A stretch of DNA of 64,000 nt from Dehalococcoidia bacterium (GCA_022822855.1 JAJDYG010000019.1:36475-100474), one strand, 5' to 3'. Counted from the stretch's first letter, positions 2,337 to 48,323 are shown. A program made the numbers and translations. Notes: generated by a model not told the origin, from the sequence alone.

Positions 2337-2377
2337 CCCCCTCAGTCGCTGCGCGACAGCTCCCCCAGAGGGGGAGC
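2337..2377. repeat. Family B structured repeat (CCCCCTC-GTCGC..GCGAC-CTCCCCC-aga-GGGGGAG)
   Basis: Nested inverted repeats that share a consensus with the copies at 12954, 14688, 34673, 36457, 37433 and 48289. Confidence 0.55.
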
Positions 2378-2404
2378 AAATTGAGAACCTGCAGGAGGAC
2401 TCAG

Positions 2405-3427
2405 ATGGCTTTTCCACACGCGATGTTGCGTTGCGGATACCCGTATGAGCGCGTGCTTGGCATGCGCCGCGTGACGACGTTCCCGGTTGACGTGGCGATT
2501 GGCGACGACCGGATCTACGTGATTGGTCGGACCGAACTCGGCGTCGGCGGGAACATCCGGATGGTTTCGCTGAAGGACGACGACGAGCTGGGCGACGACC
2601 TGACGCACGGCGACATGGGCACGATGGCCGACACCGGGCACCTGTGGCCGGTTGGGATTCTGCGCACCGACGAGGGCAACCTGCACGTCCTTGACGAGGG
2701 CAATCACAACATCACGACGTATTCGCCGGAGGGCGAGAAGCTCAATCAGTGGGGCGAGCACGGCTCGGAGCCGGGCCAGCTCGACCGGCCGTCCGGCTTT
2801 GCGTTTGACGCCGACGGCAATGTATGGGTGGTCGACACGCTGAACAACCGAATCCAGCAGTTCTCGTCGGAGGGTGAGTACGTCGGCGGATTCGGCGAGG
2901 CCGGTGACGGCCCCGGACAGTTCAACATGCCCTGGGGGATCACCTTTGACTCCGAGGGCGATGTCTACATCTCCGACTGGCGCAACGACCGCGTCCAGAA
3001 GCTGACTGCGTCGGGCGAACACATCATGGACTTCGGCACGCGGCCGGGTTACGAAGTGGTCCGACCGTGCGGGATCGCGGTCGACGAGCACGGCGACCTG
3101 TACGTTGCCGAGCGCAACAAGCATCACGTGGTGATGTACGACCATCGCGGTCGCTACGTCGAGTCGTTCCAGGGCGCGGCGACGCTGGGTCGGATGGGTC
3201 GCGAGTACATTCGCGCGAACCAGAAGACGCTGCGTCTGCGCGAGATGACCTCTCTCGAAGAGCAGAAGCTGCTGCGCTTCCCCCAGGGCGTTCGCTACCA
3301 CGAGGGACGGCTCTACATCTGCGACTTCGGCAGCCACCGCGTCCAGATCTACAAGAAGGACGCTGAAGCGCTGACCGAGCAGCAGATCATGGCCGAGTTG
3401 CGGGCTCCGACGCTGTCGACGACTTAG
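2405..3427 (+). CDS. NHL repeat-containing protein (six-bladed beta-propeller)
   Basis: Repeated motifs such as NNRIQQFSSEGEYVGGFG, GQFNMPWGITFDSEGDVYISD and NDRVQKL. ATG at 2405 is preceded by GGAGGA. Confidence 0.6.
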   Translation: MAFPHAMLRCGYPYERVLGMRRVTTFPVDVAIGDDRIYVIGRTELGVGGNIRMVSLKDDDELGDDLTHGDMGTMADTGHLWPVGILRTDEGNLHVLDEGNHNITTYSPEGEKLNQWGEHGSEPGQLDRPSGFAFDADGNVWVVDTLNNRIQQFSSEGEYVGGFGEAGDGPGQFNMPWGITFDSEGDVYISDWRNDRVQKLTASGEHIMDFGTRPGYEVVRPCGIAVDEHGDLYVAERNKHHVVMYDHRGRYVESFQGAATLGRMGREYIRANQKTLRLREMTSLEEQKLLRFPQGVRYHEGRLYICDFGSHRVQIYKKDAEALTEQQIMAELRAPTLSTT

Positions 3428-3436
3428 CCGCCGACT

Positions 3437-3489
3437 TCCCTCTCCCTCCGCCGCGCGGGGGGAGATGTCACGGAGTGACAGAGGGGGGT
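3437..3489. repeat. Family B structured repeat, inverted orientation
   Basis: ggggggagatgtcacggagtgacagagggggg is the reverse complement of the family B core. Confidence 0.5.
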
Positions 3490-3495
3490 CCTCAG

Positions 3496-3834
3496 ATGCC
3501 GATGGTGTTCGGCTTCGCGACACACCGCCGCCAACAGCTCGAGGCGGAGTTCCTGCGTATGGCCGGCTCGATGCTCCAACTGGGAGCGGAACGATTCTGG
3601 CTGGCTGGCGACCTTGCCCGTGACGACGTCGGACCCGACTCCGAGCTGGAGTTGCTCATTGTTCACGAGACCGAGCGGCCGTTTCATCGCCGCTCAGATT
3701 TCTTCCAGACCCACCTGCGGCCGCAGGTCGGCACGACGTTCACTGTCTATACGCCTGAGGAGTTTGCCGAGCACTGCGAAACCGATCGGCTGATCATTGA
3801 GGCGACGAGTCTCAGCGATGAGGTGATCGTGTGA
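3496..3834 (+). CDS. Nucleotidyltransferase-domain protein (MntA-like antitoxin of HEPN/MNT pair)
   Basis: Motif AGDLARDDVGPDSELELLIV resembles GSxxRGxxxxxSDxD of minimal nucleotidyltransferases. It overlaps the downstream HEPN gene by 4 nt (GTGA). Confidence 0.55.
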   Translation: MPMVFGFATHRRQQLEAEFLRMAGSMLQLGAERFWLAGDLARDDVGPDSELELLIVHETERPFHRRSDFFQTHLRPQVGTTFTVYTPEEFAEHCETDRLIIEATSLSDEVIV

Positions 3835-4241
3835 GTGCTGCGCCCGAGGCGGCACGCTGGCTGGCGCAGGCCGGTCATGATCTCGAGGCGGCCGAACACG
3901 CGATTGACGGTGACTTCCATGCGTTGGCCTGTTTCCTCTGCCACCAGGCGGGAGAGAAATCGGTGGCGGGGTTTCTGTACGCGCACGGCGCCGATCATGT
4001 CTGGGGACACGCTCTCGCCGACCTGTGCGAGGATGCGATGCAACTGGACAACTCGTTTGATGTGATCAAGTCGGTCGCGATGCTGCTGGACAAGTATCAT
4101 CACCCGACCCGCTATCCGACGGGTCTGCCGGGCGGCGTTCCGCACGATGTCTACGATGGCGACGATTCCGGCCGCGCGCTTGAGATCGCGCGCGACGTGC
4201 ATCAGTTCGTGTCGACCAAGCTCCAGTCTCTCGACCAGTGA
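3831..4241 (+). CDS. HEPN domain protein (HepT-like toxin)
   Basis: QAGEKSVAGFLYAHG ... LLDKYHHPTRYP matches the HEPN consensus (AxEKxLKA ... Y..tRYP). GTG start overlaps the MNT stop. Confidence 0.55.
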   Translation: MSAAPEAARWLAQAGHDLEAAEHAIDGDFHALACFLCHQAGEKSVAGFLYAHGADHVWGHALADLCEDAMQLDNSFDVIKSVAMLLDKYHHPTRYPTGLPGGVPHDVYDGDDSGRALEIARDVHQFVSTKLQSLDQ

Positions 4242-4531
4242 TCCAGTTCCGACACGTCCGACTGAACGAGTACCACTGCGCCATGCTGGCAGACCTGATG
4301 GAGCTGCAGGACGCGCCGGCTCCAAAGACAGTGATCGTCGAGGACGCGGTGGCCGAGAACGGCCTGGTCTTTCGGCCTCAGTTGCGCCACACGGGTTACC
4401 ATCCCGGAGTGTTGGCCAAACTCGCCGAGCACGGTCTCGTGGATCTGACGCATGTCGGAGAATCGGCGTACCGGGTGTACGTCACGCCGGTCGGCCGGGA
4501 CTGTTATGACGATATGTGCGGCCTGACCTGA
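4238..4531 (+). CDS. Hypothetical protein, translationally coupled to HEPN gene
   Basis: 97-aa ORF with protein-like composition (MIQFRHVRLNEYHCAMLADLMEL...). GTG start overlaps the HEPN stop (GTGA). No recognisable domain. Confidence 0.35.
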   Translation: MIQFRHVRLNEYHCAMLADLMELQDAPAPKTVIVEDAVAENGLVFRPQLRHTGYHPGVLAKLAEHGLVDLTHVGESAYRVYVTPVGRDCYDDMCGLT

Positions 4532-4536
4532 GCACG

Positions 4537-5481
4537 ATGCCAGCGAGATCCGAGCAGCCGGAACTGCCGCGGCCACTGTCACCGCAACGCCTCGGGGCGA
4601 TTCGCAAGCGGCTGTTGCAGTGGTACGCCGAGCATGAGCAACCCTTTCCGTGGCGCCACGCCAGGGATCCGTATGCCGCGCTGGTGGCGGCGGTCTGCGC
4701 GCAGCAGACCCAGATGTCTCGGGTACTGGAGATCTACGATCGCTGGATGGAGGCGTTTCCGACAATTCAAGCGTTGGCTGAGGCCAGCGATGCGGATGCG
4801 ATCCGAACCTGGGGCCGGGCCGGATATCCGCGACGAGCGATGTACCTGCATCGGACGGCGCGAATCGTCTGCGCAGAGTATGACGGTCGGCTACCGAACG
4901 ATCGGGCCATGCTGGAAGCGCTACCAGGTATCGGGCCGTTCACTGCAGCAATTGTCTTGTGTTTTGGTTATGGAATCGACGCCGCAGCGATAGATACGAA
5001 CATTACCCGTGTGCTGGGAAGGGTACTGTTCGGCGATCTACAACCGACGATTGACACACCGCCGGCGTACATACGATGGGCTTCGGAGCGGTTGCTACCA
5101 GCGAAAGAGGCAGGGCGCTGGAATCCGGCGTTGATGGACTTCGGCGCGGCGATCTGCAGCCCGCAGCCCAAATGCCACTCCTGTCCGCTGACCGGGCTTT
5201 GCGTCGCGCATGAGCAGTTCAAGGCCGGCGCTCGAGCGAAGGCTGTACGCGCGCAGCCTTCGTTCAGCGGATCGCAACGTGAGATCCGCGGCTTGATTAT
5301 GTCCGCATTGCGCTCTGCCGACGGCGCGATCAGTCGCGAACAGGTGATCGCGGACGTAGCGAAGCGTGCAGGAGCCCGAAGGTCGCGGGTGATGCTGGCG
5401 GAACGGTCACTGATAGATGACGGTTTGATTCGACAGTCAGGTCATAGACTCAGTTTAGGAACCGATAGATCGTTGACTTGA
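4537..5481 (+). CDS. A/G-specific adenine glycosylase-like HhH-GPD protein (MutY/Nth family)
   Basis: HhH-GPD region LPGIGPFTAAIVLCFGYGIDAAAIDTNITRVLGRV with catalytic Asp, and an FCL iron-sulfur loop CSPQPKCHSCPLTGLC. Confidence 0.6.
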   Translation: MPARSEQPELPRPLSPQRLGAIRKRLLQWYAEHEQPFPWRHARDPYAALVAAVCAQQTQMSRVLEIYDRWMEAFPTIQALAEASDADAIRTWGRAGYPRRAMYLHRTARIVCAEYDGRLPNDRAMLEALPGIGPFTAAIVLCFGYGIDAAAIDTNITRVLGRVLFGDLQPTIDTPPAYIRWASERLLPAKEAGRWNPALMDFGAAICSPQPKCHSCPLTGLCVAHEQFKAGARAKAVRAQPSFSGSQREIRGLIMSALRSADGAISREQVIADVAKRAGARRSRVMLAERSLIDDGLIRQSGHRLSLGTDRSLT

Positions 5482-5587
5482 GCTTTGGAAGGCTGCTTAT
5501 ACTAACGATGCACAGCGGTGGATTGAGGCCCGGAGCAACGTGGCGTTCCGGTGGAACTCTCAAACATCACCGAAGGGAATCACAACG

Positions 5588-6109
5588 ATGGCGGATTCAT
5601 TCGAGAACCAACTGCGTTCTGAACTCAGTGGCATTCAGTCTGAGATCGAGCGTCTTGAGCGCAAGCGCCAACTGATCCAGGAACTGTTGAGCAATGAGTC
5701 CGGCTCAGCCGCGCCTGCGGCAGAAGCCAAGCCCACCCGTCGGCGCGCAGCGCGACGGGGAGGAGCGTCGGTGAAACGCACGCGACGACCGCGCGGGTTG
5801 ATCACGGGCAAGGTGCGCGAGTTCCTTGGTCAGCAGCGGGAGCCGGTGCACGCGACGGAAATCCTGGCATTCCTCGAGAGGAACGATGCCGCTCCGCAGT
5901 CGGCCAAGCCCATGCCGACGCTGCAGTCCACATTGCAGCGAATGAAGGAGATGGGCGAGATTCAGAACACGGGCCGCAACCGATGGACGTTGTCTGCCGC
6001 ATCGGGCAGCGGTGGTCCGAGCGAGGCCGCTCCGGCGGTGCGCAGTGACGGTCCGCCTGTGGTCACATCGACCACTACGTTCGGCAGCCGTCCCCTGGGC
6101 AGCCAGTAG
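5588..6109 (+). CDS. Hypothetical protein: N-terminal coiled coil, basic linker, C-terminal winged-helix-like region
   Basis: ATG at 5588 inside a longer ORF. ELSGIQSEIERLERKRQLIQELL, then an RRRAARRG..KRTRRPRG stretch, then HATEILAFLERN...LQRMKEMGEI. Confidence 0.35.
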   Translation: MADSFENQLRSELSGIQSEIERLERKRQLIQELLSNESGSAAPAAEAKPTRRRAARRGGASVKRTRRPRGLITGKVREFLGQQREPVHATEILAFLERNDAAPQSAKPMPTLQSTLQRMKEMGEIQNTGRNRWTLSAASGSGGPSEAAPAVRSDGPPVVTSTTTFGSRPLGSQ

Positions 6110-6206
6110 CTCAGCCTGAGCCGGTAACATGCGGTTGCGGCCGCGCAACGTGAAGTGGCGGCCGTTGGACCATTGACGCACCAACACTGACAGGGAGCAT
6201 CTCAAC

Positions 6207-6527
6207 ATGCTGTTTGAACTTCGCCAGTACACGATCAACGAGGGACGCCGCGAGGAATTCGTCAAGCTGATGGAGGAACAGATCATCCCGTTCCAGACCG
6301 CTCAGGGGATGACCATTCTTGGCTCGTTCGTCTCCGAGGAAGACGAGAACACCTACGTCTGGATTCGGCGCTTCCACTCTGAGGCAGAACGTGAGCAGCT
6401 CTACGAGTCGGTGTATGCCTCGGACTACTGGAAGAACGAAATCGCCCCGCAGGTTGGCGAAATGATGAGCCGGGACAGCATCTCGGTGAAGCGGCTTGAA
6501 GCGACCCCGCGCTCGCCAATCCAGTAG
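6207..6527 (+). CDS. NIPSNAP family protein
   Basis: MLFELRQYTINEGRREEFVKLMEEQIIPFQ...YVWIRRFHSEAEREQLYESVY is typical of NIPSNAP. Confidence 0.6.
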   Translation: MLFELRQYTINEGRREEFVKLMEEQIIPFQTAQGMTILGSFVSEEDENTYVWIRRFHSEAEREQLYESVYASDYWKNEIAPQVGEMMSRDSISVKRLEATPRSPIQ

Positions 6528-6569
6528 TTGACTCAATCGCAGGCAGCGACGGAAGCTGACCGACCGGAC

Positions 6570-7400
6570 ATGTCGCTGGACATGCCCCGGGACATGCCTG
6601 GCGGTGCGCTGTTCACGCGCGACGGCGACTGCTTCATCCCGACGGATCGGGCGAGGGGCCCGTGGTCGCCCGACTCTTTGCACGGTAGCCCGGTCGCCGC
6701 GCTGGTGGCGTTCTGCATCGAGCAGAAGCTCCAGGAGACTTCGGCTCGAACGAGCGGCGGAACGGGGGAGTTGCGGATCGCTCGCCAAACGATCGACCTG
6801 TTTCGGCCGGTGCCGTACGGTCGCCTCGCAGTTGAAGTCGAGCCGATCCGTCAGGGCCGGCGGATCGCCGTGTTCCAGAGCCGGCTACGTTGCGAGGGCA
6901 AGTTGCTCACCCAGGCAACGACGCTGTGCCTGCTCGCCGACGAACAGTTCGGCTCGGTGGGCGCCGATCACACGGCTGAGCCTCCTCCCCCACCCTCTGA
7001 AGGGATCGCGAACAAGATTGACCGGGTTGGCAATCGATGGGTGTCATATCCGGGCACGTTGGAAATGTGTCACATTGTGCCACCGGGATCGGAGCGCGCC
7101 CCAGTCGTCTGGATACGGAACGATGCGCCGGTGCTGGAAGAGACGCCGCTCTCTCCTGCCGTGCGGGCGGCGGGGATCGCCGACTTCGTCTCTCCGTTCG
7201 CCAACATGCAGCCCGGCCGGAGCGGATATGTGAACGCCGACATCACGATGCACCTGCATCGACCTCCAGTCGGGGAATGGCATTACCTCAGGGTGGTCTC
7301 GCGCGGCGCTGCCGACGGCGTTGCGACAGCCCAGGCCGTGCTCGGCGACGAGTCCGGGGCTTACGGCGCGAGCTCGGCCGCCAGCCTGATCAATCTCTGA
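6570..7400 (+). CDS. Thioesterase-family protein (TesB-like double hotdog)
   Basis: GPWSPDSLHGSPVAALVAFCIE and RIAVFQSRLRCEGKLLTQATTLCLL resemble thioesterase-like superfamily proteins. The ORF could start earlier at TTG 6528. Confidence 0.4.
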   Translation: MSLDMPRDMPGGALFTRDGDCFIPTDRARGPWSPDSLHGSPVAALVAFCIEQKLQETSARTSGGTGELRIARQTIDLFRPVPYGRLAVEVEPIRQGRRIAVFQSRLRCEGKLLTQATTLCLLADEQFGSVGADHTAEPPPPPSEGIANKIDRVGNRWVSYPGTLEMCHIVPPGSERAPVVWIRNDAPVLEETPLSPAVRAAGIADFVSPFANMQPGRSGYVNADITMHLHRPPVGEWHYLRVVSRGAADGVATAQAVLGDESGAYGASSAASLINL

Positions 7401-7460
7401 TTCATGCCAATCTCCCGTCGGGTCGTAGCGTCACCAGAGTCAGATCGTTAATCTTTAGCT

Positions 7461-9509
7461 ATGGCTGGCCGAATCGTTGGGATGATCTCCGTTCTCACGA
7501 TTGTGGGAGTGATCGCCGCTGCTGCGGTGCTGTTGATGCTGGCGCTGGACTCGGAAGAGGACTCCGGCCGCCATTCGGCCAAGGTGCTCGCCGAAGCGGT
7601 CGCAGGGTGGCTTGAGGCGAATCAGCTTGAGGACCTGACTGACGAGCAACTTGAGGCGCTGATTCGCGCCAACACACCGATTGACGATGCCTCGGGCGAC
7701 GAGGAGTCGCAGTTCGGCGACCTGTGGGTCTTCAACACTCAGGCGCGCCTGTCGGCTTCATCGGAAGGCACGCGCCCGATCACGCGTGACGAGATTCTGC
7801 CTGCGCGGCAAGTCATGGAGCCGGACGCGGAGACAGTAATCGAATCGCTCACCGCGGGCCGCTACGCCGGCACGGCGGCCATTCGAGATGTGGACGGCAC
7901 CGTGTTGGGCGCGGTCCGGATCGAGTTCACGACCAGCGAAATCGGCACCCACTTCGAGCTCTACCGCACCGAGTACCTGATTGGCGTCGTGGTCATCCTG
8001 GTGGCGTTGGTGCTGGGCAGTTGGTTCCTCGCCACGCGGCTGGCGCGACCGATTGGCACCATGGTGCGCGCCGCGAGGGCGGTGGAAGCCGGACGCCAGC
8101 CCGAGCCGGGCGTGGCGGCGTCGCTGCGCAACACATCGTTGACGAGAGACGAATACGGCGAACTGGCCGGCGTGTTCCTAGACATGGCGAGGGAGGTCGG
8201 AGCGAGAGAAATCCAGCTCAACGCGCTGGTCGAAGAGCGAACCGTCGAACTGTCGCAGAAGAACCTGGCGCTCGAAGACGCGCAGCGCGAAATCCGCAAC
8301 GACCTCGAGATGGCCCACTCGGTCCAGGCGGCCCTGGTACCCGCCGACCTGCCCGAGGACCCGCGAGCGGGCGTTGCCGCATTCATGACTCCGGCGCTGG
8401 ATGTCGGCGGCGACTTCTACGACGCCTTCCTGACCGACGACGGCCGCCTCGCGTTCGCGATCGCCGACGTCTCCGGCAAGGGCGTGGCCTCGGCGCTGAT
8501 GATGGCCGTCGGCCGTGCGGTCCTGCGCAGCGCTGCCAATCAGCATGCGGATCCGAGCGACGCAATCGCCTCGACCAACGATCAGCTTTGCGGCATGAAT
8601 CCGAAGGAACTGTTCATTACCGCGTTCTTCGGAGTCATCGACCTGGAACTGGGCACCCTGACCTACGTGAACGCGGGACACGATCCTCCCTATCTGATCC
8701 GCCCCAACGAGGGACCGGAGATGATTCCACATACGGGCGGGATCGCACTCGGTGTGTTGCCGGAGCTCAGCTACGCGGAGACCACGATTCCGCTCGATCC
8801 CGGCACTGCGCTCTATCTCTACACGGACGGGATCACCGAGGCCGAGAATGCCAGCGGGCAGCAGTTCGGCCGCGAACGGCTGGAACAGAAGCTGGCCGAG
8901 ATGAACGGCGCCGGACCGCAGGGATTGATGGACGACATCCTGTTCGACCTCCGTGAGTTCACCGGCGACGCCAAGCAGTTCGACGACATCACCTGCATGG
9001 CCGTGCAGTTCGTCGGCGGAGCGTCGCCGGAGCAGTACATCCCGGGCCGAGGCGACGCACATCTCGCGTCAGGTTGGCGGCGAATGGTCGTCCAGCCGAC
9101 CCTGGAGACGTCGCTGCCGAGAGTTGCGGCGTTCGTAGAGCGATTCGCCGAGTCGCAAGGCTTCTCCGCCATGGAGGTGTACCGGATCAACCTGGCCCTG
9201 GACGAGCTGCTGACGAACACTGTTGAGCACGGCTTCCCGGGGCGTGAACAGGAAGCGGATATCTCCGTCGCGATTCGCAGCGAGGGCGACAGCGTGATCG
9301 TGCGCTACGAAGACAACGGCCCTGAGTTCAATCCACTCGAGGCGACCGAGCAGGACACTGAGTTAGAGTTGGAAGAGCGACCGATCGGAGGATTGGGATT
9401 GCAGCTAATCGCTTCGACCTTCGACGACGTCAGCTACGAGCGGGCGAACGAACGCAATGTCACCACATTGCGACAGAGTCGTAAGACGCCGACTGAGGAG
9501 CCAGATTAG
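7461..9509 (+). CDS. Membrane-anchored PP2C (SpoIIE/RsbU-type) phosphatase with HAMP region, fused to a C-terminal RsbW-like HATPase_c anti-sigma kinase domain
   Basis: Two TM segments and a PP2C region (AFAIADVSGKGVASALMMA ... YLYTDGITEAENASGQQFG). C-terminal LALDELLTNTVEHGF ... GGLGLQLIASTFDDV is a GHKL ATPase motif set. Confidence 0.65.
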   Translation: MAGRIVGMISVLTIVGVIAAAAVLLMLALDSEEDSGRHSAKVLAEAVAGWLEANQLEDLTDEQLEALIRANTPIDDASGDEESQFGDLWVFNTQARLSASSEGTRPITRDEILPARQVMEPDAETVIESLTAGRYAGTAAIRDVDGTVLGAVRIEFTTSEIGTHFELYRTEYLIGVVVILVALVLGSWFLATRLARPIGTMVRAARAVEAGRQPEPGVAASLRNTSLTRDEYGELAGVFLDMAREVGAREIQLNALVEERTVELSQKNLALEDAQREIRNDLEMAHSVQAALVPADLPEDPRAGVAAFMTPALDVGGDFYDAFLTDDGRLAFAIADVSGKGVASALMMAVGRAVLRSAANQHADPSDAIASTNDQLCGMNPKELFITAFFGVIDLELGTLTYVNAGHDPPYLIRPNEGPEMIPHTGGIALGVLPELSYAETTIPLDPGTALYLYTDGITEAENASGQQFGRERLEQKLAEMNGAGPQGLMDDILFDLREFTGDAKQFDDITCMAVQFVGGASPEQYIPGRGDAHLASGWRRMVVQPTLETSLPRVAAFVERFAESQGFSAMEVYRINLALDELLTNTVEHGFPGREQEADISVAIRSEGDSVIVRYEDNGPEFNPLEATEQDTELELEERPIGGLGLQLIASTFDDVSYERANERNVTTLRQSRKTPTEEPD

Positions 9510-9550
9510 GCTATTCTGTCCACTGTCAGACGTGACTGAGGAGATGCGCA

Positions 9551-40550: not shown

Positions 40551-41220
40551 GCGATCTGAGGCAGCGGTCCCCGCGGCGACGGTCGCTGCAAAGGAAGCCT
40601 GGGAAGTTACGCCGGAGGCGTTTCCGTTGCGCCTGCAGTTGCCATCCGACTGGGAGTTGACGGATGAGTGCTTCCTCGAACTGGGCCGCCTCAACGAGGG
40701 CTGGCGGATTGAAGCGGACGGCGAAGGAGGCCTGCTGATCATGGCGCCAACCGGTCCGATGAGCAGTGCCCGGGGAAGCAGCGCCCTGGCTCAAATCTGG
40801 GTCTGGAGCGACGCACACGAGTCGGGAATGGTCTTCGATTCGAGCGCCACCTTCCTGCTGGCCAACGGTGATCGCCGGATGCCCGATGCAGCCTGGATTA
40901 GCGACGAACGGCTGGCGGAGATTGCCGACGACGATGACATCATCTGGCGAATCTGCCCCGATTTCGTCGTCGAGGTGCGATCACAGTCCGACCGGCTGGC
41001 GCCTCAACAGGTGAAGATGGAGTTGTGGATCTCGCAGGGCGCCCGGCTTGCATGGCTTGTCGATCCGTTGGAGGAAACGGTCTGGATTTACCGACCGGGG
41101 CAAGAGCCGGAGCAGGTCGAGCGGCCCGAGAGCGTGACGGCGACGGAGATTGCGGATGATCTGGTGATCGACTTCACTCGGATCTGGCCGCAGCGGGATC
41201 AAGGGTCAGAGACCAGCTGA
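40537..41220 (+). CDS. Uma2 family (DUF820) endonuclease-like protein, copy 3
   Basis: Same family but more diverged. The junction with copy 2 is identical to the copy 1/copy 2 junction. Confidence 0.55.
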   Translation: MVTAERSEAAVPAATVAAKEAWEVTPEAFPLRLQLPSDWELTDECFLELGRLNEGWRIEADGEGGLLIMAPTGPMSSARGSSALAQIWVWSDAHESGMVFDSSATFLLANGDRRMPDAAWISDERLAEIADDDDIIWRICPDFVVEVRSQSDRLAPQQVKMELWISQGARLAWLVDPLEETVWIYRPGQEPEQVERPESVTATEIADDLVIDFTRIWPQRDQGSETS

Positions 41221-42319: not shown

Positions 42320-42399
42320 GGTGTCCGTTCTTGCTGTCCGCTCCTACCCGGTTTCCGCCGACCTCAGGCTAGGACAGGCGAGTTGGTAGGCTCACGCTC

Positions 42400-43182
42400 G
42401 TGACCACTCCTCGACGCGACGAATGGCAGCCCGACCAGTACGCCCGCTTCAAGGCGGAGCGGGAGCAGCCGTTTTACGACCTGTTGGACCTGGTCGAGGC
42501 GATTCCAGAGGGCCGGGTCGTCGATCTGGGCTGCGGCACGGGCAAGCTCACTCGAGTGCTGCACGAGCGGACGCAGGCGGCGGAGACGGTTGGGCTGGAT
42601 CGCTCCGACGCGATGCTGGAGCAGACGGCGCAGTACGCCGGCGGAGGCGTCCGGTTTGAGCGGGGCGACATCGGGGAGTTCTCGGACTCCGGGCTGGACG
42701 TCGTCTTCGCCAACGCGTCGATCCAGTGGGTGCCCGACCACGCGGCGCTGTTTCCCCGGCTGGCAGCGACGCTCGGGCCGGGCGGCCAGCTCGCGGTGCA
42801 GATGCCGGCCAACGAGGATCATCCCTCGCACGCGGTCGCTCGGGAGGTGGCAACCCACTCGCCGCACGCCGAAGCGCTGGGCGGCTTCGTCTACCGCCAC
42901 TCGATTGAGCCGGAGGAGTGGTACGCCGAGCAGTTCGCGCGGATTGGCTTCGCCGAGCAGCACGTGCGAGTCCAGGTCTACCTGCACCGGCTGCCGGGGC
43001 GGGAGGATGTCGTCGAGTGGGTCAAGGGGTCGCTGCTGACCGGCTACCGCGATCGGATGGCGGCGGAGGACTACGAGCTGTTTCTGGCCGACTATCGGGA
43101 GCGGTTGCTGTCGGTGCTGCCGGACGAGCGGCCGTTCCTGTATCCGTTCAAGCGGCTACTGCTGTGGGGGCGGATGGGGTAA
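42400..43182 (+). CDS. tam: Trans-aconitate 2-methyltransferase-like class I SAM methyltransferase
   Basis: QPDQYARFKAEREQPFYDLLDLV ... VVDLGCGTGKLT ... VFANASIQWVPDH closely matches the Tam family. GTG start. Confidence 0.55.
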   Translation: MTTPRRDEWQPDQYARFKAEREQPFYDLLDLVEAIPEGRVVDLGCGTGKLTRVLHERTQAAETVGLDRSDAMLEQTAQYAGGGVRFERGDIGEFSDSGLDVVFANASIQWVPDHAALFPRLAATLGPGGQLAVQMPANEDHPSHAVAREVATHSPHAEALGGFVYRHSIEPEEWYAEQFARIGFAEQHVRVQVYLHRLPGREDVVEWVKGSLLTGYRDRMAAEDYELFLADYRERLLSVLPDERPFLYPFKRLLLWGRMG

Positions 43183-43473
43183 GCGGGTGTCAATTTCTGC
43201 TAGTTTTTCCTAGTTTCGACCAAGTATTTTCGCCTCGTTATGTTCGGGATTCTTGCGGATTTCCTGTGCTTTGCTGGGTTTCGTGATCGGGGTTCGGGTT
43301 TCAGGCGGGAAATTTTTTCCGCCGGCCGCCGACGCAGCGAAGCCGGGGGGTCCGGAGCTAGTCGCTCTCCTGTTCTTGGTTCATGATAGCGGGTTGTTGG
43401 AGGGTTTGTTGGACGCCCTGTTGACGCCGAGGTATATCCTGTCATTGTGGCGAACCGCTGAGGGAGCGTGAAC

Positions 43474-43644
43474 ATGACGACTCAGGAAGAATCGAGACCG
43501 GCAACGCTCTCGGAGTTGTTCCTGGTTCGAGATCAACTCAACAGCCGGATCGATGACCTCCAGAAAGTGATGTTCTGGGGATTCGGGCTGTTGGCGGCGC
43601 TGCTCATCGCATTGCTTGGTGTGGTCCTGAGCGGAGCAGGCTGA
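43474..43644 (+). CDS. Small (56 aa) single-pass membrane protein with N-terminal helical segment; paralog of 47734-47982
   Basis: ORF below the 60-aa track cut-off: ...LNSRIDDLQKVMFWGFGLLAALLIALLGVVLSGAG. Shares N.RIDDL...W-G...LLxALLG with the 82-aa protein. Confidence 0.3.
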   Translation: MTTQEESRPATLSELFLVRDQLNSRIDDLQKVMFWGFGLLAALLIALLGVVLSGAG

Positions 43645-43650
43645 CCAACC

Positions 43651-45279
43651 TCACCCCTCCAACTTCGGCTGTACGCCTTCCCGACGGCGGCGGCGCGGGG
43701 CCTTGCGGAAGGTCTGGGGGGCGGCGAAGCGGGGGTAGTCGGGCTGGGCGCCGTCGAGGAGCTGCTCGATGGTCAGGATCTGGACCTTCGGATAGCGGTT
43801 GCCGGGCAGACTCTCCGGCTCGTAGAAGCCCGCGCCGATCGCTTCCTGGCGCATGGGCTCGGTCGGCTCTTCGAGCGTGATGAAGATGCCGACGGCGGCT
43901 TCCTCGCGATCCATGTCGCCTTTCAGCGTGGCGATCATCCCGCGGTTCACGTGGCCGCTCTTGACCTGGACGATGATCCGCCTGGCCTTGCCCGAGTTGT
44001 CGTCGAAGAAGTTGATGTAGCCGTCGATGCCGGAGTCGGCGCCCTTCTTGCCCGTCGCGGGGCGGGCGTCGACGAGGCCGAGGGCCCAGTACTCGAACTG
44101 GTAGCGGCCGTCGTGCTCCGACTCCGTCGCCAGCGCCCGAGCGCTGGCGACGTCCTGGGGCAGACCGATCACTGAGTACTCGGACAACTCTGAGCCGAAC
44201 GTGTCGTGGAGGCGGTGTTTCATCAGCGACACGGCAAGATGCGTGATGTCTATGCCGATCCAGCGCCTCTTCAGGCGCTCGGCGACAGCGACCGCGGTAC
44301 CGCATCCGCAGAACGGATCGAGAATGACATCGCCTTCGTTGCTGCAGGCACTAATGATGCGCTCAAGTAGCGCTTCAGGCTTCTGGGTCGGATATCCGAG
44401 ACGCTCTTGGTGCCAGGAGCGTAAAGCTTCAATGTCGGTCCAATTGTCCTGAACGGCCAGACCTCGCGCCTCGTCCAGATACCGCTTGATACGAGGTATG
44501 CCGTTCCGCGTGTAGAAGATTCTTCCCTCGGCGTCCAGGCGAGCCATCGTTGACTCGGGAACGCGCCACAATCTGGTTACGCCCTTCCATTCATATGTAT
44601 AGCCACCTCCTTGCAGTCCACCAGCCCCCAGGTCTCCGGACATGAAGCGCCGGCCATCATCATCCGTGTATCGATAGTACTGTTCAACGTATTGAGGATC
44701 GTAGTCTTGGTACTCTTGATTCCAGAGGTAATCGCTTGAGTTCGAAAAGAACATCAGAACATCGTGGACCGAACCGTATCTCCTTGCATCGCTGTGAGCG
44801 CTTGTCCTCTTCCAGATGATCTCGTTGCGGTAGTTGTCATGTCCGAACACCGCGTCCAACAGCAGCTTGATGTAGTGGCTGGCCGTCGGGTCGCAGTGGA
44901 GGTAGATGCTCCCCGTGGGCTTGAGCACTCGGCGGAGTTCGGCCAGCCGCTGGGCCATCATCGTCAGGTAGGCCATCATGTCGTTCTGGCCCAGGAAGGC
45001 TCGCATCGCCTGGAGCAGGCTTGCGAGCCGCTCCGGACCCTGCGTCACCACCTCGCGGTAGGCGGCCTCCGAGCCAAGGTCCCAGTGCCAGGTGTCGTCG
45101 AAGGCCGTGATCTGCGCGGCCGAGTCCTCGCCCGTCTTCTCCTCGAAGAGGACGTTGTAGGTGGCGTTGGAATTGAAGGGCGGGTCGAGGTAGATCAGGT
45201 CGACGGACTCGTCGGGGATGTGTTCGCGGAGGACGCTGAGGTTGTCGCCGAAGTAGAGCTGGTTGGTCCAGGTGGTCAT
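43651..45279 (-). CDS. N4/N6 DNA methyltransferase (beta class) fused to C-terminal Mrr-like restriction endonuclease domain
   Basis: DPPF motif (DLIYLDPPFNSNATY), SAM motif TQKPEALLERIISACSNEGDVILDPFCGCGTAV, and a C-terminal GADSGIDGYI ... RIIVQVKSG (D..QxK nuclease-like core). Confidence 0.65.
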   Translation of the reverse strand: MTTWTNQLYFGDNLSVLREHIPDESVDLIYLDPPFNSNATYNVLFEEKTGEDSAAQITAFDDTWHWDLGSEAAYREVVTQGPERLASLLQAMRAFLGQNDMMAYLTMMAQRLAELRRVLKPTGSIYLHCDPTASHYIKLLLDAVFGHDNYRNEIIWKRTSAHSDARRYGSVHDVLMFFSNSSDYLWNQEYQDYDPQYVEQYYRYTDDDGRRFMSGDLGAGGLQGGGYTYEWKGVTRLWRVPESTMARLDAEGRIFYTRNGIPRIKRYLDEARGLAVQDNWTDIEALRSWHQERLGYPTQKPEALLERIISACSNEGDVILDPFCGCGTAVAVAERLKRRWIGIDITHLAVSLMKHRLHDTFGSELSEYSVIGLPQDVASARALATESEHDGRYQFEYWALGLVDARPATGKKGADSGIDGYINFFDDNSGKARRIIVQVKSGHVNRGMIATLKGDMDREEAAVGIFITLEEPTEPMRQEAIGAGFYEPESLPGNRYPKVQILTIEQLLDGAQPDYPRFAAPQTFRKAPRRRRREGVQPKLEG

Positions 45280-45432
45280 GTCCCCACTCTACCTCCTACA
45301 ACAGACTTGTCCCACGGAGGGAAAGGAGCGCAGAGGTGCCCTCTCCCCTCCGTGATTGTCGCGCATGCAGGAGTCCATTCGAGTAGCGCATGTCGAAGGG
45401 GAGAACAACGTACTTGACTCGCATTTTACCAC

Positions 45433-46386
45433 TCACAGCGACTCACGTAAGGCGTACCAGTTATATCTCCCCGCGTCCAGGGGCTGAGCAGTGACCTGCA
45501 CCATATCGTTCAGCAAGAGTCCAACAAAGATCGACCAGGGCTCACTAGATTCGAAATCTACTATGTGTCCTTGCGGCTCCGGTGTGAGTTCTATTCTAAC
45601 CAAGGAATGTTCCGGCATCTTGCTGTCTTTGGTTTCGTTAGCACTAACCAGTATGTTCTTCTTGCCTGCGCTATGATTGAGCGCGACCGCCAGATCTATA
45701 CGATCGCGGTGCCCCAGCCCATGCTGACGTACTAAGTGTTCATAGCTCAGCCGCAGGCTGAGAAAATCCGTAGCGTCGAAGGCTATCACAAAGAAAATCG
45801 ATTCCCAGTAGCGGCCGGCGCCAAGCGCTTCGCCAAAGGGCTTTGCGGTGGCGATGGGATGATAGGGATGCGGATCACGGTACGCAACGCGCGACAGTGA
45901 CTTGTAGCTCTCGCACTTGTCAAAGCAGTCTCGAAGCTGGCTCGCATGCAGCCTTGTCTTCACTTCTCCACATGCGTAGGTAGCCTCAACCGGGAATACT
46001 TCAGCTCCATCAGGCCCAGCCGCTGCCCGAATCCTTGGGCAGTTGAAGCGATCATAGAGAATGATGTCCATTTGCTTGGAAGTGCTTCCATAGGAATCTA
46101 CTACGAAGCCATGTGAGATACCGACCTTCTCAGGAGGCACGCTGCTGAGAGCTTCACGGATTCGGGATTCGATACTCTGACCAATCTCTCCCGGACTCGG
46201 AAGCTTGCGATCACCCTCAATGTCAGCGATCAAGCGCGTTTGCATGTCGTAAAGGGACTCTGCGAGTTGGCCACGCGTTGGTGCGGGTGCATTCCCGCCA
46301 TCGTTGGGAGCCCGCGTCGGTCGGGGATTTACGATTGGTAGGCTGCGTTCTTTCTGTCGCCTGCGATTCTCTTTCGACATTGCCAT
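45433..46386 (-). CDS. Uncharacterised PD-(D/E)xK nuclease-like protein (candidate restriction/defence endonuclease)
   Basis: GFVVDSYGSTSKQMDIILYD ... AEVFPVEATYACGEVKT gives a D-x(n)-E-x-K arrangement. It sits directly upstream of and co-oriented with the MTase gene, in an AT-richer segment. Confidence 0.35.
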   Translation of the reverse strand: MAMSKENRRRQKERSLPIVNPRPTRAPNDGGNAPAPTRGQLAESLYDMQTRLIADIEGDRKLPSPGEIGQSIESRIREALSSVPPEKVGISHGFVVDSYGSTSKQMDIILYDRFNCPRIRAAAGPDGAEVFPVEATYACGEVKTRLHASQLRDCFDKCESYKSLSRVAYRDPHPYHPIATAKPFGEALGAGRYWESIFFVIAFDATDFLSLRLSYEHLVRQHGLGHRDRIDLAVALNHSAGKKNILVSANETKDSKMPEHSLVRIELTPEPQGHIVDFESSEPWSIFVGLLLNDMVQVTAQPLDAGRYNWYALRESL

Positions 46387-46882
46387 CCTACTCACGATTC
46401 TCAGGACACCTTGACCACGCCCCATTGTCGTCAAGCAGGTTCCGCCAATCAAGGAATTGGCTGCAATCCACGCAGTGGCGCACCGGCCTAGGCGATGACA
46501 GGTGCGATATCCCCAATGGTGGTTTTGCGCCGCGCGATGTTGAAATCGTAGCCGCGCTGCAGGTTGAGCCTAAACGCCGGCGTCGTGTCCAGCGGCTGAA
46601 GTGCGGTCCCGATAGTGCGCTGTAAACTGAGTGGACAGCGATCAGGAAGAGATGCGCGATGCCGGACGAAGAGAGGGGCTTGACCGTCGGGCAGGCGGTG
46701 CGCGGCGACGGGCCGCCGATGGACCCGGAAGAGGCCCGCAAGCTCCGCGAGCGCGTCTCCGGGAGCTGGGAGAAGTACTTCCGCGAGTACCCGGCACTCG
46801 AGGAAGCCTACGGGCAGCACCGACGCCCCAGCTTCGAAAGCGGCTAGCCAATCACGGTATTCATCGACGGAGTGTTCAGGCC

Positions 46883-47125
46883 GTGGAGCGGATTTACTCC
46901 AAGGACACCGACACGCTGATGTTCGTCTTTTCCGACGAGCGCATCGTTGACCATGTCGATCTCGACTACCAGACGCTGCTCGAGCTGGACTGCGACGGCA
47001 ACCCGGTCGCATTGACCATCGAGCACGCCCGCGAACGCGAGGTCTTGCGGCCTCCTGATGCCGGCGGGCTGCCTAATGCTACGACCGCACCGACCTCTGT
47101 ACGTGCTCGCGGAGCGCCTGGTTGA
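46883..47125 (+). CDS. DUF2283-like small protein
   Basis: RIYSKDTDTLMFVFSDERIVDHVDLDYQTLLELDCDGNPVALTIEHARER resembles the DUF2283 pattern (Y D.EAD.L.I.L ... D.D.dG.lvGIEI). Putative GTG start; the long upstream in-frame extension looks non-coding. Confidence 0.3.
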   Translation: MERIYSKDTDTLMFVFSDERIVDHVDLDYQTLLELDCDGNPVALTIEHAREREVLRPPDAGGLPNATTAPTSVRARGAPG

Positions 47126-47363
47126 TCTTGGTCTGATAGCCCCGACCCTCCTGCGCCTGCGCCTTGAACCAGGCGATCACGTCGGCATCGATTCTGAGCG
47201 TGATCTGTTGCTTGACCGGCCGGTAGAACTTGCCTCGCACGGCGCCCGTCCAGTCAGTCGTTTCCGGAATGTCACTGAAGTCGATCTGGTCATCCGGGAG
47301 AGCTTCCAAGGCCCTAATCTGAGCCTGCGACTCGGGCGACAGATCACTCATTTCCTTCTTCAT
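47079..47363 (-). CDS. brnA: BrnA antitoxin (CopG/RHH-like)
   Basis: SDIPETTDW ... ITLRIDADVIAWFKAQAQEGRGYQTKINQALREHV is the BrnA family pattern. Overlaps the brnT 3' end. Confidence 0.55.
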   Translation of the reverse strand: MKKEMSDLSPESQAQIRALEALPDDQIDFSDIPETTDWTGAVRGKFYRPVKQQITLRIDADVIAWFKAQAQEGRGYQTKINQALREHVQRSVRS

Positions 47364-47634
47364 ACTCCCGCCTCTCTGACCTCGACGCCTTTCGTGCCGA
47401 GATGACTCGCGCGCTCAGTTCTGGCCCCATGGGCGTTTCCTCAAACCAGGTGTGAATCACCACAATGACCTGGGACGCAACCATGCCGATTGTCCGCCAG
47501 CGTTGCTCCTGCCGATAATGATCCTCGACCGTGATCGACATCGGATCGTCGAAGACTGCGACCGCAGTTGGAAAATCGATGTCGTGCTTGCGAAGGTTGG
47601 CAACGTTCTTCGCGGGATCCCAGGTCCATCTCAA
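47344..47634 (-). CDS. brnT: BrnT toxin (DUF497 ribonuclease)
   Basis: WTWDPAKNVANLRKHDIDFPTAVAVFDDP ... RVISARKASRSERREYEEG matches the BrnT/DUF497 consensus. Start appears to be TTG. Confidence 0.6.
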   Translation of the reverse strand: MRWTWDPAKNVANLRKHDIDFPTAVAVFDDPMSITVEDHYRQEQRWRTIGMVASQVIVVIHTWFEETPMGPELSARVISARKASRSERREYEEGNE

Positions 47635-47733
47635 TCCCTCCGGCTCCTTCCGTCACTACGACAGTGTAACTACCCCGCCCATCGTGAGCATGCAGGATGA
47701 GAGAGCCTCTGTCGCCAGACTCGGTCCTGCCTA

Positions 47734-47982
47734 CTACCCAGCCCGGGCGAGTAGGGCGCCGAGGATGGCGAGGATTGAGGCGTATCCGACGGCAATGCCC
47801 CAGGTCAGGAGTCGGAAGCGGGCGTTGACTTCCTGTCTCAGATCGTTGAACCGCGCGTTCACGTCTTTGCGCATGTCGTCGATCCGCGCGTTGCCGTCGT
47901 CGATGCGCTGATTCGTAATGGTTAGCGCGTCGCGGATCCCCGATGGATCACTCGGCTCGCCTGGGTGCTCGCTCGTGACCAC
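47734..47982 (-). CDS. Small (82 aa) coiled-coil/single-TM protein, XhlA-like architecture; paralog of 43474-43644
   Basis: Internal repeats RIDDGNARIDDMRKDVNARFNDLRQEVNARF followed by TM segment LLTWGIAVGYASILAILGALLARAG. Confidence 0.3.
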   Translation of the reverse strand: MVTSEHPGEPSDPSGIRDALTITNQRIDDGNARIDDMRKDVNARFNDLRQEVNARFRLLTWGIAVGYASILAILGALLARAG

Positions 47983-48108
47983 GCCATTGCCTCCGACCCT
48001 CGCGCCCGCTGTAGTGCATTCTTATCAGTTGGATAACACCAACACGGGGGTCATGCGCTCCCCTTTGCCTACCGAGGATCCACTCGGCCCTGCGTTGAGG
48101 CAGCGGCG

Positions 48109-48250
48109 CCGAGCGGGTCCCCGAACAAGTCGGGGACTGGGAGGCGAGCCGGTCTCCGAACGAGTCGGGGAACGGGAGCCGAGCGGGTCCCCGAACGGGT
48201 CAGGGAACAGGTGCCGAGCGGGTCCCCGAACGGGTCGGGGAGTGGGAGCC
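48109..48250. repeat. Four tandem copies of a ~35-bp unit, each a small hairpin (gtccccgaacRRgtcgggga)
   Basis: gagcgggtccccgaacgggtcggggaacgggagcc with minor variants, repeated head-to-tail four times. Confidence 0.6.
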
Positions 48251-48288
48251 GGGCGGACGCCCGCGTGAAGCGGGGAGCGGCCCCCTCC

Positions 48289-48323
48289 GTCGCATCGCGA
48301 CACCTCCCCCAAAGGGGGAGGTC
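48289..48323. repeat. Family B structured repeat (short form)
   Basis: ccccctccgtcgcatcgcgacacctcccccaaagggggag. Confidence 0.5.

Follow-up and report, generated by a model that had tools for sequence, protein, structure and literature searches.

The window, a 64,000-nucleotide stretch of DNA from a Dehalococcoidia bacterium, carries 11 short repeat copies, nine of one family (family B) and two of another (family A), and the two families have a common three-block triplex layout. Our preferred reading, to which we give a probability of roughly 0.55, is that they are short, non-coding, dispersed 'potential intrastrand triplex' DNA repeats, which are structure-prone and would cause local instability. 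The existence of a dispersed, structured and mostly intergenic repeat family is confirmed. A covariance model was trained on 21 copies, all but two of which come from other genomes. It found nine family B copies in the window with E-values from 1.5e-16 to 1.2e-4, and gave no other significant match there (Table 1); it placed them at 2337, 3441-3487 (minus strand), 11471, 12955, 14690, 34677, 36459, 37434 and 48281. The motif TCTCCCCC-N3-12-GGGGGAGA was matched three times in the window against an expectation of 0.00, and the 30-nt core pattern, with up to three mismatches, six times against 0.08. A generic three-block triplex scan of the window returned eight loci, all eight of them family members, while 60 dinucleotide shuffles gave 1.9 ± 1.3 loci (maximum 5).

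A first-pass annotation of the window had listed at least ten structured copies sharing one consensus structure. All of these are present to within a few bases, with the last starting at 48281 and not at 48289, and the covariance model bears out the common structure. The copies had been described as entirely intergenic, which is true of nearly all, but B4 lies inside a called ORF (12939-14645, minus strand), where it overlaps the last ~20 codons. They had also been said to occur in both orientations; a minus-strand family B copy does exist, but the distribution is unbalanced, with eight copies on the plus strand and one on the minus strand.

Table 1. Repeat copies in the window, with block and spacer coordinates
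Copy	Family and type	Position	Strand	Score or basis	Blocks	Spacers and other parts
B1	B, A-type	2337-2377	+	70.6 bits, E = 1.5e-16; covariance model seed	H 2337-2344 CCCCCTCA; Y 2359-2366 GCTCCCCC; R 2370-2377 GGGGGAGC	linker hairpin 2345-2357; loop 2367-2369
B2	B, T-type	3441-3488	-	45.4 bits, E = 4.6e-10	H 3488-3480; Y 3465-3457; R 3449-3441 (GGAGGGAGA, imperfect)	linker hairpin 3479-3467; loop 3456-3450
B3	B, C-type	11471-11508	+	24.5 bits, E = 1.2e-4	H 11471-11478 CCCCCTCC; Y 11489-11495; R 11501-11508 GGGGGAGG	short GCC-TAC-GGC linker
B4	B, T-type	12954-12997	+	29.8 bits, E = 4.9e-6	H 12954-12962; Y 12973-12981; R 12989-12997	short GCC-TTC-GGC linker
B5	B, T-type	14689-14733	+	34.1 bits, E = 3.8e-7	H 14689-14697; Y 14708-14716; R 14725-14733	short linker 14698-14706
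B6	B, T-type, canonical	34677-34721	+	53.7 bits, E = 3.5e-12	H 34677-34684; Y 34699-34706; R 34714-34721	linker hairpin 34685-34697; loop 34707-34713
B7	B, with second hairpin	36458-36528	+	36.4 bits		second hairpin CCCCGCATCAAGTGCGGGG, 36482-36500, nested between linker hairpin and Y arm
B8	B, nested hairpin as in B7	37433-37508	+	24.7 bits, E = 1e-4		nested hairpin 37457-37479
B9	B, C-type	48281-48321	+	63.9 bits; covariance model seed	H 48281-48288; Y 48303-48310; R 48314-48321	linker hairpin 48289-48301; loop 48311-48313
A1	A, BoxC/PIT/TMECO type	1038-1070	-	exact TMECO pattern; triplex scan; covariance model E = 0.003	CCCTCTCCC TCT GGGAGAGGG CTA GGGTGAGGG (minus strand)	
A2	A, degenerate BoxC/TMECO	2273-2306	-	only 7.6 bits in covariance model		second loop 'type A' TTA

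Each family B copy consists of three blocks, H (CCCCCTCN), Y (NCTCCCCC) and R (GGGGGAGN). Y and R pair as a Watson–Crick hairpin, and H, at the 5′ end, is joined to Y by a small covarying hairpin. Since H is the mirror image of Y, it is parallel-complementary to R, and the layout is that of a predicted intrastrand triple-helix motif. Read on the G-rich strand, the order is Y arm, loop, R arm, linker and a purine-rich H′ (R read backwards); the linker is 3 nt in family A and a hairpin, GTCRC-NNN-GYGAC or GCC-TNC-GGC, in family B. The predicted DNA folds, which cover Watson–Crick pairs only, placed two adjacent hairpins in every canonical copy and left the conserved 5′ C-rich block unpaired; z-scores of the simple copies ranged from -2.3 to -4.4. 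The outer G5/C5 stem that had been annotated is contradicted by these folds, and the register in which the 5′ C block and the 3′ G block correlate is parallel, not antiparallel. With at most one mismatch allowed per block, seven of the nine family B copies, as well as A1, fall into triplex class II (G strand)/class IV (C strand), and B7 and B8 fall outside solely on account of their nested hairpin, which makes the spacer longer. The structured linkers of family B, mostly 10-16 nt, exceed the loop limits of both published triplex searches, which are 1-6 nt in ITxF (PMC4666352) and 0-10 nt in Hoyne et al. (as cited in PMC4666352).

Family A has a known counterpart. BoxC is an E. coli element from the enterobacterial repeat surveys of the 1990s and the PIT element was described by Hoyne et al. 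in 2000 (both as cited in PMC4666352), while TMECO, defined as 5′-CCCTCNCCC N3-6 GGGNGAGGG N3 GGGNGAGGG-3′, comes from Holder et al. (2015, NAR 43:10126; PMC4666352). A1 matches the TMECO pattern exactly, with 0 matches expected by chance; A2, which adjoins B1 in the window, failed the exact pattern and has one Watson–Crick mismatch (R arm) and one mismatch in the third block. Family A matched 5408 of 5426 E. coli genomes, at a median of 14 places per genome and 80-95% identity; for copies in almost all of these genomes the identity is 86-95%. Judged by its sequence, family A is the BoxC/PIT/TMECO element, whose reported hosts are proteobacterial, and its presence here in a Chloroflexota genome lies outside that range. 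None of the nine family B copies in the window matched the TMECO pattern, and family B had no match in the E. coli genomes, so that by sequence it is not a member. Both the identity of family A and the layout common to the two families had escaped the first-pass annotation.

Family B nevertheless resembles BoxC/PIT/TMECO in its class II/class IV three-block layout, in its G/C-rich stems of 8-9 triplets, intergenic location and occasional inverted pairs, in having no gene strand bias and no terminator or promoter signals, and in its association with local structural variation. It differs in its blocks (GGGGGAGN, compared with GGGNGAGGG in TMECO), in its covarying hairpin linker of 10-16 nt where TMECO has 3 nt, in its range of at least seven phyla, the 262 genomes from which TMECO was reported (PMC4666352) being proteobacterial, and in its placement at gene 3′ ends, whereas TMECO lies more often upstream of ORFs (Holder et al., PMC4666352). 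By its long structured linker, family B is a putative variant of the intrastrand triplex motif.

The exact 30-nt family B pattern was found in at least 117 stretches of genomic DNA and in 33 viral contigs, in agreement with the earlier suggestion that the family extends beyond the window. Further copies occur in Alphaproteobacteria, Chloroflexota, Clostridia and elsewhere, and the family is nearly unchanged in at least seven bacterial phyla. Lineage-specific subfamilies were also observed.

Three-way covariation is seen at positions that the search pattern did not fix. In a set of 134 copies, the bases at H position 8, at Y position 23 and at the end of R were (A,G,C) in 57, (T,T,A) in 57, (C,C,G) in 14 and anything else in 4, counts which, like those from all copies below, overstate the number of independent events because the copies are related by descent. 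Each of the three linkage types occurs in several phyla, and they could be old subfamilies. For pattern-independent copies, the register was set from G(R)-C(H) positions only and the unscored R=A positions were then read: the H base facing R=A was T in 144, A in 37, C in 7 and G in 6, compared with A 32, C 9, G 19 and T 22 in a reversed-register control. Triplex geometry fitted 105 copies, as against 41, 10 and 15 in three controls. When each distinct H/Y/R combination was counted once (n = 46), H at internal R=A positions was T in 52, A in 18, G in 4 and C in 4, and the H block was compatible throughout with 24 of 29 distinct purine cores. Among the variants compensated in all three blocks are CTTCCTCA/GCTCCTTC/GAAGGAGC and CCCCCTTC/CTTCCCCC/GGGGGAAG, and the existence of such variants supports the view that triplex geometry is under selection. 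Both Watson–Crick hairpins covary as well, linker pair 12-18 being G-C in 65 copies, A-T in 48, C-G in 19, T-A in one and unpaired in one. Where H has an A facing an A-T pair, the triplet on the G strand is T.A-T, which is allowed in the purine motif and not listed for the pyrimidine motif (PMC4666352). The triplet code is not clear-cut at C-G interruptions, where H carries A at some positions and G at others; within the window the code breaks in B4, which has T opposite G, and in B3, whose Y arm has decayed through a T to C change.

The repeats are enriched where genes converge. Intergenic regions with a copy were convergent in 35 cases, co-directional in 42 and divergent in 8, compared with 51, 220 and 82 of those without a copy (odds ratio for convergent placement 4.1, p = 2e-7). 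Enrichment at gene 3′ ends fits an RNA-level role equally well. In co-directional contexts 18 copies were sense and 18 antisense; orientation is thus unrelated to the direction of transcription. The annotation had also offered a terminator or a guide-RNA-like transcript as possible roles. The former finds no support, since none of 13 terminator-like calls in 1-16000 and 33000-49000 fell on any copy and no T tract follows the hairpin on either strand of the repeats, which therefore do not have the make-up of intrinsic terminators. The repeats share with such terminators a GC-rich hairpin downstream of genes, but also have a second hairpin and a further conserved block that stays unpaired. Nor did any promoter-like call fall on a copy in the window. 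A guide-RNA or sRNA role is opposed by the even orientation and by Rfam, which gave no match at the gathering score and none at a copy even when E-values up to 5 were admitted.

A role in RNA of another kind would be that of a REP-like element, in which 3′ UTR hairpins block 3′-to-5′ exonucleases or help end transcription in either orientation, and the extra block on the C-rich strand could add a pyrimidine-motif RNA triplex. We regard this as unlikely. The strong convergent enrichment with divergent depletion, the stable hairpins on both strands and the ability of pyrimidine-motif intrastrand triplexes to form in RNA (PMC4666352) speak for it. However, no copy has a T or U tail, PIT elements are reported neither to act as terminators or promoters nor to affect RNA polymerase (as summarised in PMC4666352), and orientation is 18 to 18 even though one strand only could form the RNA triplex. 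A simple hairpin role also leaves the conserved unpaired mirror block unexplained, and A-for-T in H fits the DNA purine motif and not the RNA-capable pyrimidine motif.

The description of the family as REP/MITE-like was correct as regards its REP-like placement. Family B resembles the REP/BIME elements of enterobacteria and pseudomonads in being short, GC-rich, hairpin-forming and intergenic, in occurring singly or in mosaics with other modules (A2-B1, B9 with its array, the hairpin in B7 and B8), and in its gene 3′ end enrichment and strain-to-strain variation. It differs in that it is not a simple single palindrome, contains a mirror-image third block with no counterpart in REPs, and shows no conserved GTAG-type 5′ tetranucleotide, no such motif being visible in the repeat sequences of the window; no RAYT transposase was found among the ORFs scanned here; and REP families are lineage-specific, whereas family B is nearly identical across phyla. 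The MITE half of the description is not supported: the polymorphic B7 locus has no target-site duplication and no clean empty site, and no repeat is common to the sequences flanking the copies in the window.

Comparison with relatives that are 94-98% identical revealed copies gained, lost or nested. B7 is simple and un-nested in relative L118, nested with an expanded C run in L120, and absent in L119, where the difference is a ragged indel that also changes how the gene for methylenetetrahydrofolate reductase (MTHFR) ends. B8 is present in each of the four genomes, its nested loop differing by a 4-nt CTTG indel, B6 has orthologues in L118, L119 and L120, and B9, which adjoins a 35-bp tandem hairpin array in the window, is absent in L118 at a synteny break, with synteny resuming at 48332. 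Instability is not uniform, since A1, A2, B1 and B2 are identical in close relatives (L154-L156 in the case of B1). The earlier proposal of a recombination substrate agrees with this gain, loss and nesting and with the link of BoxC/TMECO to local genome variability (PMC4666352).

These presence/absence differences, together with the hairpin nested inside two copies, could also be expected of a non-autonomous REPIN- or MITE-like element mobilised by a single-strand DNA transposase encoded elsewhere (RAYT or IS200/IS605-like), which would recognise the hairpins and the flanking C-rich block with no triple helix involved. Near-identity in at least seven phyla, the non-triplex linker hairpin included, the subfamilies, which suggest amplification bursts, the 33 viral contigs, and the inverted pairs 100-170 nt apart at Pararhizobium, Rhizobium and Oscillospiraceae loci point the same way; in the window, the only inverted neighbours are B1 and B2, 1.1 kb apart. 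We nonetheless consider mobilisation of this kind improbable, as there was no transposase in the 20 flanking ORFs (Pfam) or in the relatives' gene tables, the polymorphic locus is a ragged indel, plasmid matches are to large non-mobilizable replicons only, and Holder et al. found no mobility genes in the TMECO neighbourhood (PMC4666352). Enzyme recognition, moreover, predicts neither a mirror-repeat code nor variants compensated in all three blocks. Sites bound by a conserved protein that recognises C-rich or G-rich DNA, single- or double-stranded (for example a nucleoid-associated or poly(C)-binding protein), serving chromosome organisation or gene regulation, would account for CCCCCTC/GGGGGAG blocks conserved across very different GC backgrounds, but are very improbable given that many block variants keep the three-way relation and not a fixed sequence, that neighbouring genes have no common functional theme, and that mirror repeats are not recognised by symmetric DNA-binding dimers.

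According to the potential-triplex reading, Y and R would form a hairpin and H′ would fold back into its major groove in an antiparallel purine motif made up of G.G-C and A/T.A-T triplets. Like H-DNA, family B has a like-strand mirror relation and follows common triplet rules (G.G-C, A/T.A-T or C+.G-C, T.A-T); H-DNA, however, arises from a duplex mirror repeat donating half of one strand, whereas the blocks of family B and their Watson–Crick partner lie on one strand, so the fold would be intrastrand and need only local strand separation. A single-stranded TMECO oligonucleotide forms a stable triplex by CD and NMR, but in vitro the duplex wins after addition of the complementary strand, and in vivo DMS footprinting in E. 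coli detected no TMECO triplex (PMC4666352). In cells, the triplex would probably form only on DNA that is transiently single-stranded during replication, transcription or repair. The repeats would then be structure-prone and probably selfish elements acting as DNA, which persist where they are least harmful, at gene 3′ ends and above all where two genes converge. Stalled or perturbed local DNA transactions may lead to small insertions and deletions, to nested insertions and to breakpoints of rearrangement. The linker hairpin has no part in the triplex, yet it too is nearly identical across phyla, and the copies would thus spread by a mechanism beyond the triplex explanation.

A bolder proposal, which we put forward tentatively as a possibility, is that family B is a pan-bacterial, previously unrecognised triplex class with a hairpin linker, whose fold is selected as a functional unit. 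If so, the compensated variants in seven or more phyla would be the first evolutionary evidence of a DNA triplex formed and selected in living bacteria, which published in vivo footprinting did not show. The fold might then, for example, help the element to spread, as a structure for recognition or priming, or act as a programmed replication or repair pause site.

The sequences that the first-pass annotation listed as repeat copies are found in the window, where they form two families, at a census of nine family B and two family A (BoxC/PIT/TMECO type) copies in 64 kb. A covariance model was built from 21 copies of equal length, of which 19 came from other genomes; equal length was required because MAFFT misaligned the 3′ arm of variable-loop copies. 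The entire window was scanned with this model, filters off. This common model, a check proposed in that annotation and run here over the window, recovered nine family B copies (E = 1.5e-16 to 1.2e-4); the next match was the family A copy A1 (E = 0.003), and none other was credible. The hairpin motif TCTCCCCC-N3-12-GGGGGAGA occurs three times in the window versus 0.00 expected, and the 30-nt family B core (≤3 mismatches) six times versus 0.08 expected. Eight of the nine B copies lie on the + strand. The claim that all copies are intergenic holds for the others, but not strictly for B4, which is read through by a called ORF encoding a 568-aa FAD-dependent halogenase-like protein, whose C-terminal ~20 residues are encoded by the repeat. 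This tail illustrates how a repeat can extend a called protein or substitute for its C-terminus, and such repeats can give ORF calls spurious tails.

Repeat copies and other features of the window (CM, covariance-model match)
Feature	Position	Strand	CM	Remarks
A1	1038-1070	-	1038	
A2	2273-2306	-		
B1	2337	+	2337	
B2	3441-3488	-	3441-3487	
B3	11471	+	11471	
B4	12954-12997	+	12955	
B4-encoded tail of ORF 12939-14645	12939-13000	-		ends ...FSPREAGGDAEGKGGHPER (stop); 'SPREAGGDAEGKGG' tail
B5	14689	+	14690	
B6	34677	+	34677	
B7	36458	+	36459	
B8	37433	+	37434	
B9	48281	+	48281	
Second hairpin family	33705-34096, 34797-34815, 36482-36500, 37457-37479, 48119-48240, 54068-54086			
Mosaic of C-rich hairpin modules	33670-34100			146-bp unit, 1.8 copies at 33808-34072
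Tandem Uma2-family genes	39607-41196			667-bp period
DNA methylase fused to Mrr-type nuclease domain	43651-45279			
Lower-GC stretch	44-48 kb			GC 58-60% vs ~65%
Segment with unrelated sequence instead in L118	47193-48332			
Spurious-looking ORF	47918-48268			overlaps tandem array
Tandem array	48108-48256			35-bp unit, 4.3 copies, 83% matches; GTCCCCGAAC-N-GTCGGGGA hairpin per unit
Two adjacent paralogous genes	60341-62912	-		common internal repeats 1393-1399 nt apart, 77-85% identity

Read on the C-rich strand, family B comprises an H block (CCCCCTCN), a linker hairpin (GTCRC-NNN-GYGAC, or the shorter GCC-TNC-GGC) followed by a single A, a Y block (NCTCCCCC), a loop of 3-15 nt and an R block (GGGGGAGN'). 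Y pairs with R by Watson-Crick rules, and H is Y reversed, and hence parallel-complementary to R; judged from the sequence, the blocks are arranged as in an intrastrand triple helix, of class IV (pyrimidine motif) when read on the C strand and of class II (purine motif) on the G strand, where the order is Y, loop, R, linker, R-backwards, as in B6 (5'-TCTCCCCC GATCCAA GGGGGAGA T GTCACGAAGTGAC AGAGGGGG-3'). Family A has the same three-block layout with a linker of only 3 nt (CCCTCTCCC TCT GGGAGAGGG CTA GGGTGAGGG on the - strand). A generic scan for three-block geometry returned eight loci in the window, all of them family members, compared with 1.9 ± 1.3 in 60 dinucleotide shuffles. The first-pass annotation had proposed a REP/MITE-like repeat with an outer G5/C5 stem. 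That stem did not survive: the T/A correlation is confined to the parallel register, and when every canonical copy is folded as single-stranded DNA, from either strand, the prediction is two adjacent hairpins with a conserved 9-11 nt block left unpaired (z-scores of -2.3 to -4.4). The REP-like idea stands only loosely, inasmuch as the repeats are dispersed, structured and intergenic; the structural model of the annotation was wrong.

To our knowledge, BoxC/PIT elements have gone unexplained since the 1990s, and nobody has shown that their fold is relevant in the cell. BoxC, the PIT element and TMECO are the same element (Holder et al., 2015, PMC4666352), with the pattern CCCTCNCCC-N3-6-GGGNGAGGG-N3-GGGNGAGGG and 3610 copies across 262 proteobacterial genomes (23 in E. 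coli MG1655), which are always intergenic, show no strand bias and, according to Hoyne and Maher as cited in that paper, are without promoter or terminator activity. As a single-stranded oligonucleotide, TMECO forms a very stable triplex (CD, NMR, Tm 70-82 °C); in vivo DMS footprinting did not detect the triplex, and the element is associated with local genomic variability and has no mobility genes nearby (PMC4666352). A1 is an exact match to this pattern, and a 51-nt query around it matched in 5408 of 5426 complete E. coli genomes; the median genome had 14 such places, and none of the places is annotated. Family A is therefore the already known BoxC/TMECO, with a Chloroflexota genome as its host here.

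E. coli lacks family B, whose structured linker of 10-16 nt is too long for the loops that the two published triplex searches accepted (1-6 nt and 0-10 nt). A literature search with six 12-nt family B strings gave unrelated primer matches only, and one on rhizobial RIME repeats yielded nothing of direct use. We would class family B as a new, hairpin-linked form of intrastrand-triplex repeat, and it may already have been described under another name. The exact 30-nt B pattern, with seven free positions, matched at least 117 genomic DNA stretches. Judged by record titles, hosts among the matches listed include Alphaproteobacteria (Caulobacter, Phenylobacterium, Rhizobium, Pararhizobium, Hoeflea, Maricaulis, Leisingera), a Bordetella MAG, many Chloroflexota MAGs (Dehalococcoidia, Anaerolineae and others), Clostridia (Oscillospiraceae, Monoglobus and others), Riflebacteria, Rhodothermales, Bradymonadales and Spirochaetota. 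The flanks are AT-rich in low-GC hosts, and contamination therefore does not explain those matches. The pattern is also carried by 33 viral contigs, and plasmid matches are confined to large non-mobilizable Rhizobium and Neorhizobium replicons plus one Deinococcus replicon. Each lineage has a distinct loop and flank subfamily, and the window genome has a mixture of all three main B types. The hairpin-linked variant is nearly identical at every base in hosts that range from Caulobacter and Rhizobium to the Chloroflexota and the Clostridia of the rumen, and we know of few non-coding elements conserved so widely; family B also occurs as many block variants that retain the triplet code.

Three free positions vary together among the 134 pattern matches: H position 8, Y position 23 and the last R base read, in that order, (A,G,C) in 57, (T,T,A) in 57, (C,C,G) in 14 and something else in 4, although these copies share ancestry and so are not independent events. 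In 133 of the 134, the linker-hairpin pair that the pattern leaves free is Watson-Crick, with three main pair types. For a pattern-independent test we drew on all loci for hairpins whose 5′ arm is pyrimidine, excluded pattern matches, and set the register of H by G-C positions alone, after which the unscored positions were read. Opposite an A in R stood T in 144 cases, A in 37, C in 7 and G in 6, versus 22, 32, 9 and 19, respectively, in a reversed-register control, and triplex geometry was fitted by 105 copies versus 41, 10 and 15 in three controls. When each of 46 distinct combinations was counted once, an internal A in R still faced T 52 times, A 18, G 4 and C 4, and 24 of 29 distinct purine cores had a fully compatible H. 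Triple-compensated variants occur, such as CTTCCTCA / GCTCCTTC / GAAGGAGC in an Oscillospiraceae MAG, and CCCCCTTC / CTTCCCCC / GGGGGAAG. C-G interruptions face A at some positions and G at others, and in the window the triplet code is broken at one position each in B3 and B4. We know of no ordinary mutational process that generates mirror repeats, and selection on triplex geometry, among copies sharing ancestry, would therefore be the simplest reading of the three-block relation. An A in H opposite an A-T pair is frequent and equals T.A-T on the G strand, a triplet that the purine motif permits and that is missing from those given for the pyrimidine motif, and purine-motif triplexes do not form in RNA (Holder et al., PMC4666352). 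Both observations speak for G-rich DNA, in single-stranded form, as the species that matters.

At the high-GC loci, intergenic regions with a copy were convergent in 35 cases, co-directional in 42 and divergent in 8, versus 51, 220 and 82 for regions without one (odds ratio 4.1 for convergent, p = 2e-7; 0.34 for divergent, p = 0.004). A role at RNA 3′ ends is a live rival to a DNA-level element. Co-directional contexts comprised 18 sense and 18 antisense copies (131 copies, high-GC loci), Rfam gave no match at any copy at gathering or permissive thresholds, and a tRNA/tmRNA scan found none. Trans-mobilisation by a putative transposase is also a live rival. The genes flanking the copies are unrelated metabolic genes (DUF1800, DUF1501, NHL repeat, aminotransferase, GNAT, MOSC, luciferase-like monooxygenase (LLM) family oxidoreductase, methylenetetrahydrofolate reductase (MTHFR), Fe-S assembly protein and NuoB). 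Shine-Dalgarno or anti-Shine-Dalgarno mimicry (GGAGG / CACCTCC) was dropped, since the neighbouring genes come with ribosome-binding sites of their own and copies occur in either orientation, and an intrinsic terminator or promoter was rejected, no copy drawing a terminator-like or promoter-like call. In the window, 10 of the 11 copies share one orientation; among 123 copies elsewhere, orientation was unrelated to local GC skew, a crude proxy for replication strand (58 vs 65). B1 and B2 form an inverted pair (2337-3488) that exactly brackets the NHL-repeat gene at 2405-3427, and inverted B pairs in other genomes (e.g., L005, L051, L078, L093) lie 100-170 nt apart.

Some copies change rapidly among three syntenic relatives (L118, L119 and L120) that are 94-98% identical to the window. 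B7 is simple in L118, carries an extra nested CCCCGCATCAAGTGCGGGG hairpin in the window and L120, has an expanded C run in L120, and is absent from L119 through a ragged indel that also takes two residues off MTHFR. B8 varies by a 4-nt indel in its nested loop, and in L118 other sequence stands in place of B9 and the 35-bp tandem array beside it, synteny returning 11 nt past the element. A1 is identical in all four close relatives with the region recovered, B1 and B2 in three, and A2 likewise save for one base in two. The 35-bp array lies directly upstream of B9 and nuoB. A second hairpin family, CCCCG-x-(CTTGA/CAAG)-x-CGGGG, has 14 pattern matches, three of which are loop ends of B copies; it is clustered, nested in two B copies, and without the triplex layout. 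L118 has an insertion of ~2 kb, which includes a terminase-like gene (L118 14269-16235), exactly at window ~33939-33993, and the C-rich hairpin mosaic therefore marks a strain-level indel breakpoint.

Elsewhere in the window, the Uma2-family (putative endonuclease) genes are present in two copies in L118 and L119 and three in L120. The methylase-Mrr locus is 86% identical to a locus of Chloroflexota MAG IRC2_bin_8 (L083), and synteny with the relatives breaks at the bounds of the lower-GC stretch; locus and stretch are probably a mobile restriction-modification island.

We put at slightly better than even, about 0.55, the reading that these repeats act as DNA-level, structure-prone and probably selfish elements, which would be tolerated at the 3′ ends of genes and would promote local indels and rearrangements. 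Triplex formation in vivo, its part in causing the instability, and the mechanism of spreading are what we infer. These elements coincide with strain-level breakpoints. The hairpin-linked variant offers a comparative handle on whether selection acts on triple helices in bacteria, and on the strand and chemistry used (the purine motif, hence DNA), with Caulobacter, Sinorhizobium or Rhizobium as tractable hosts for a genetic test.
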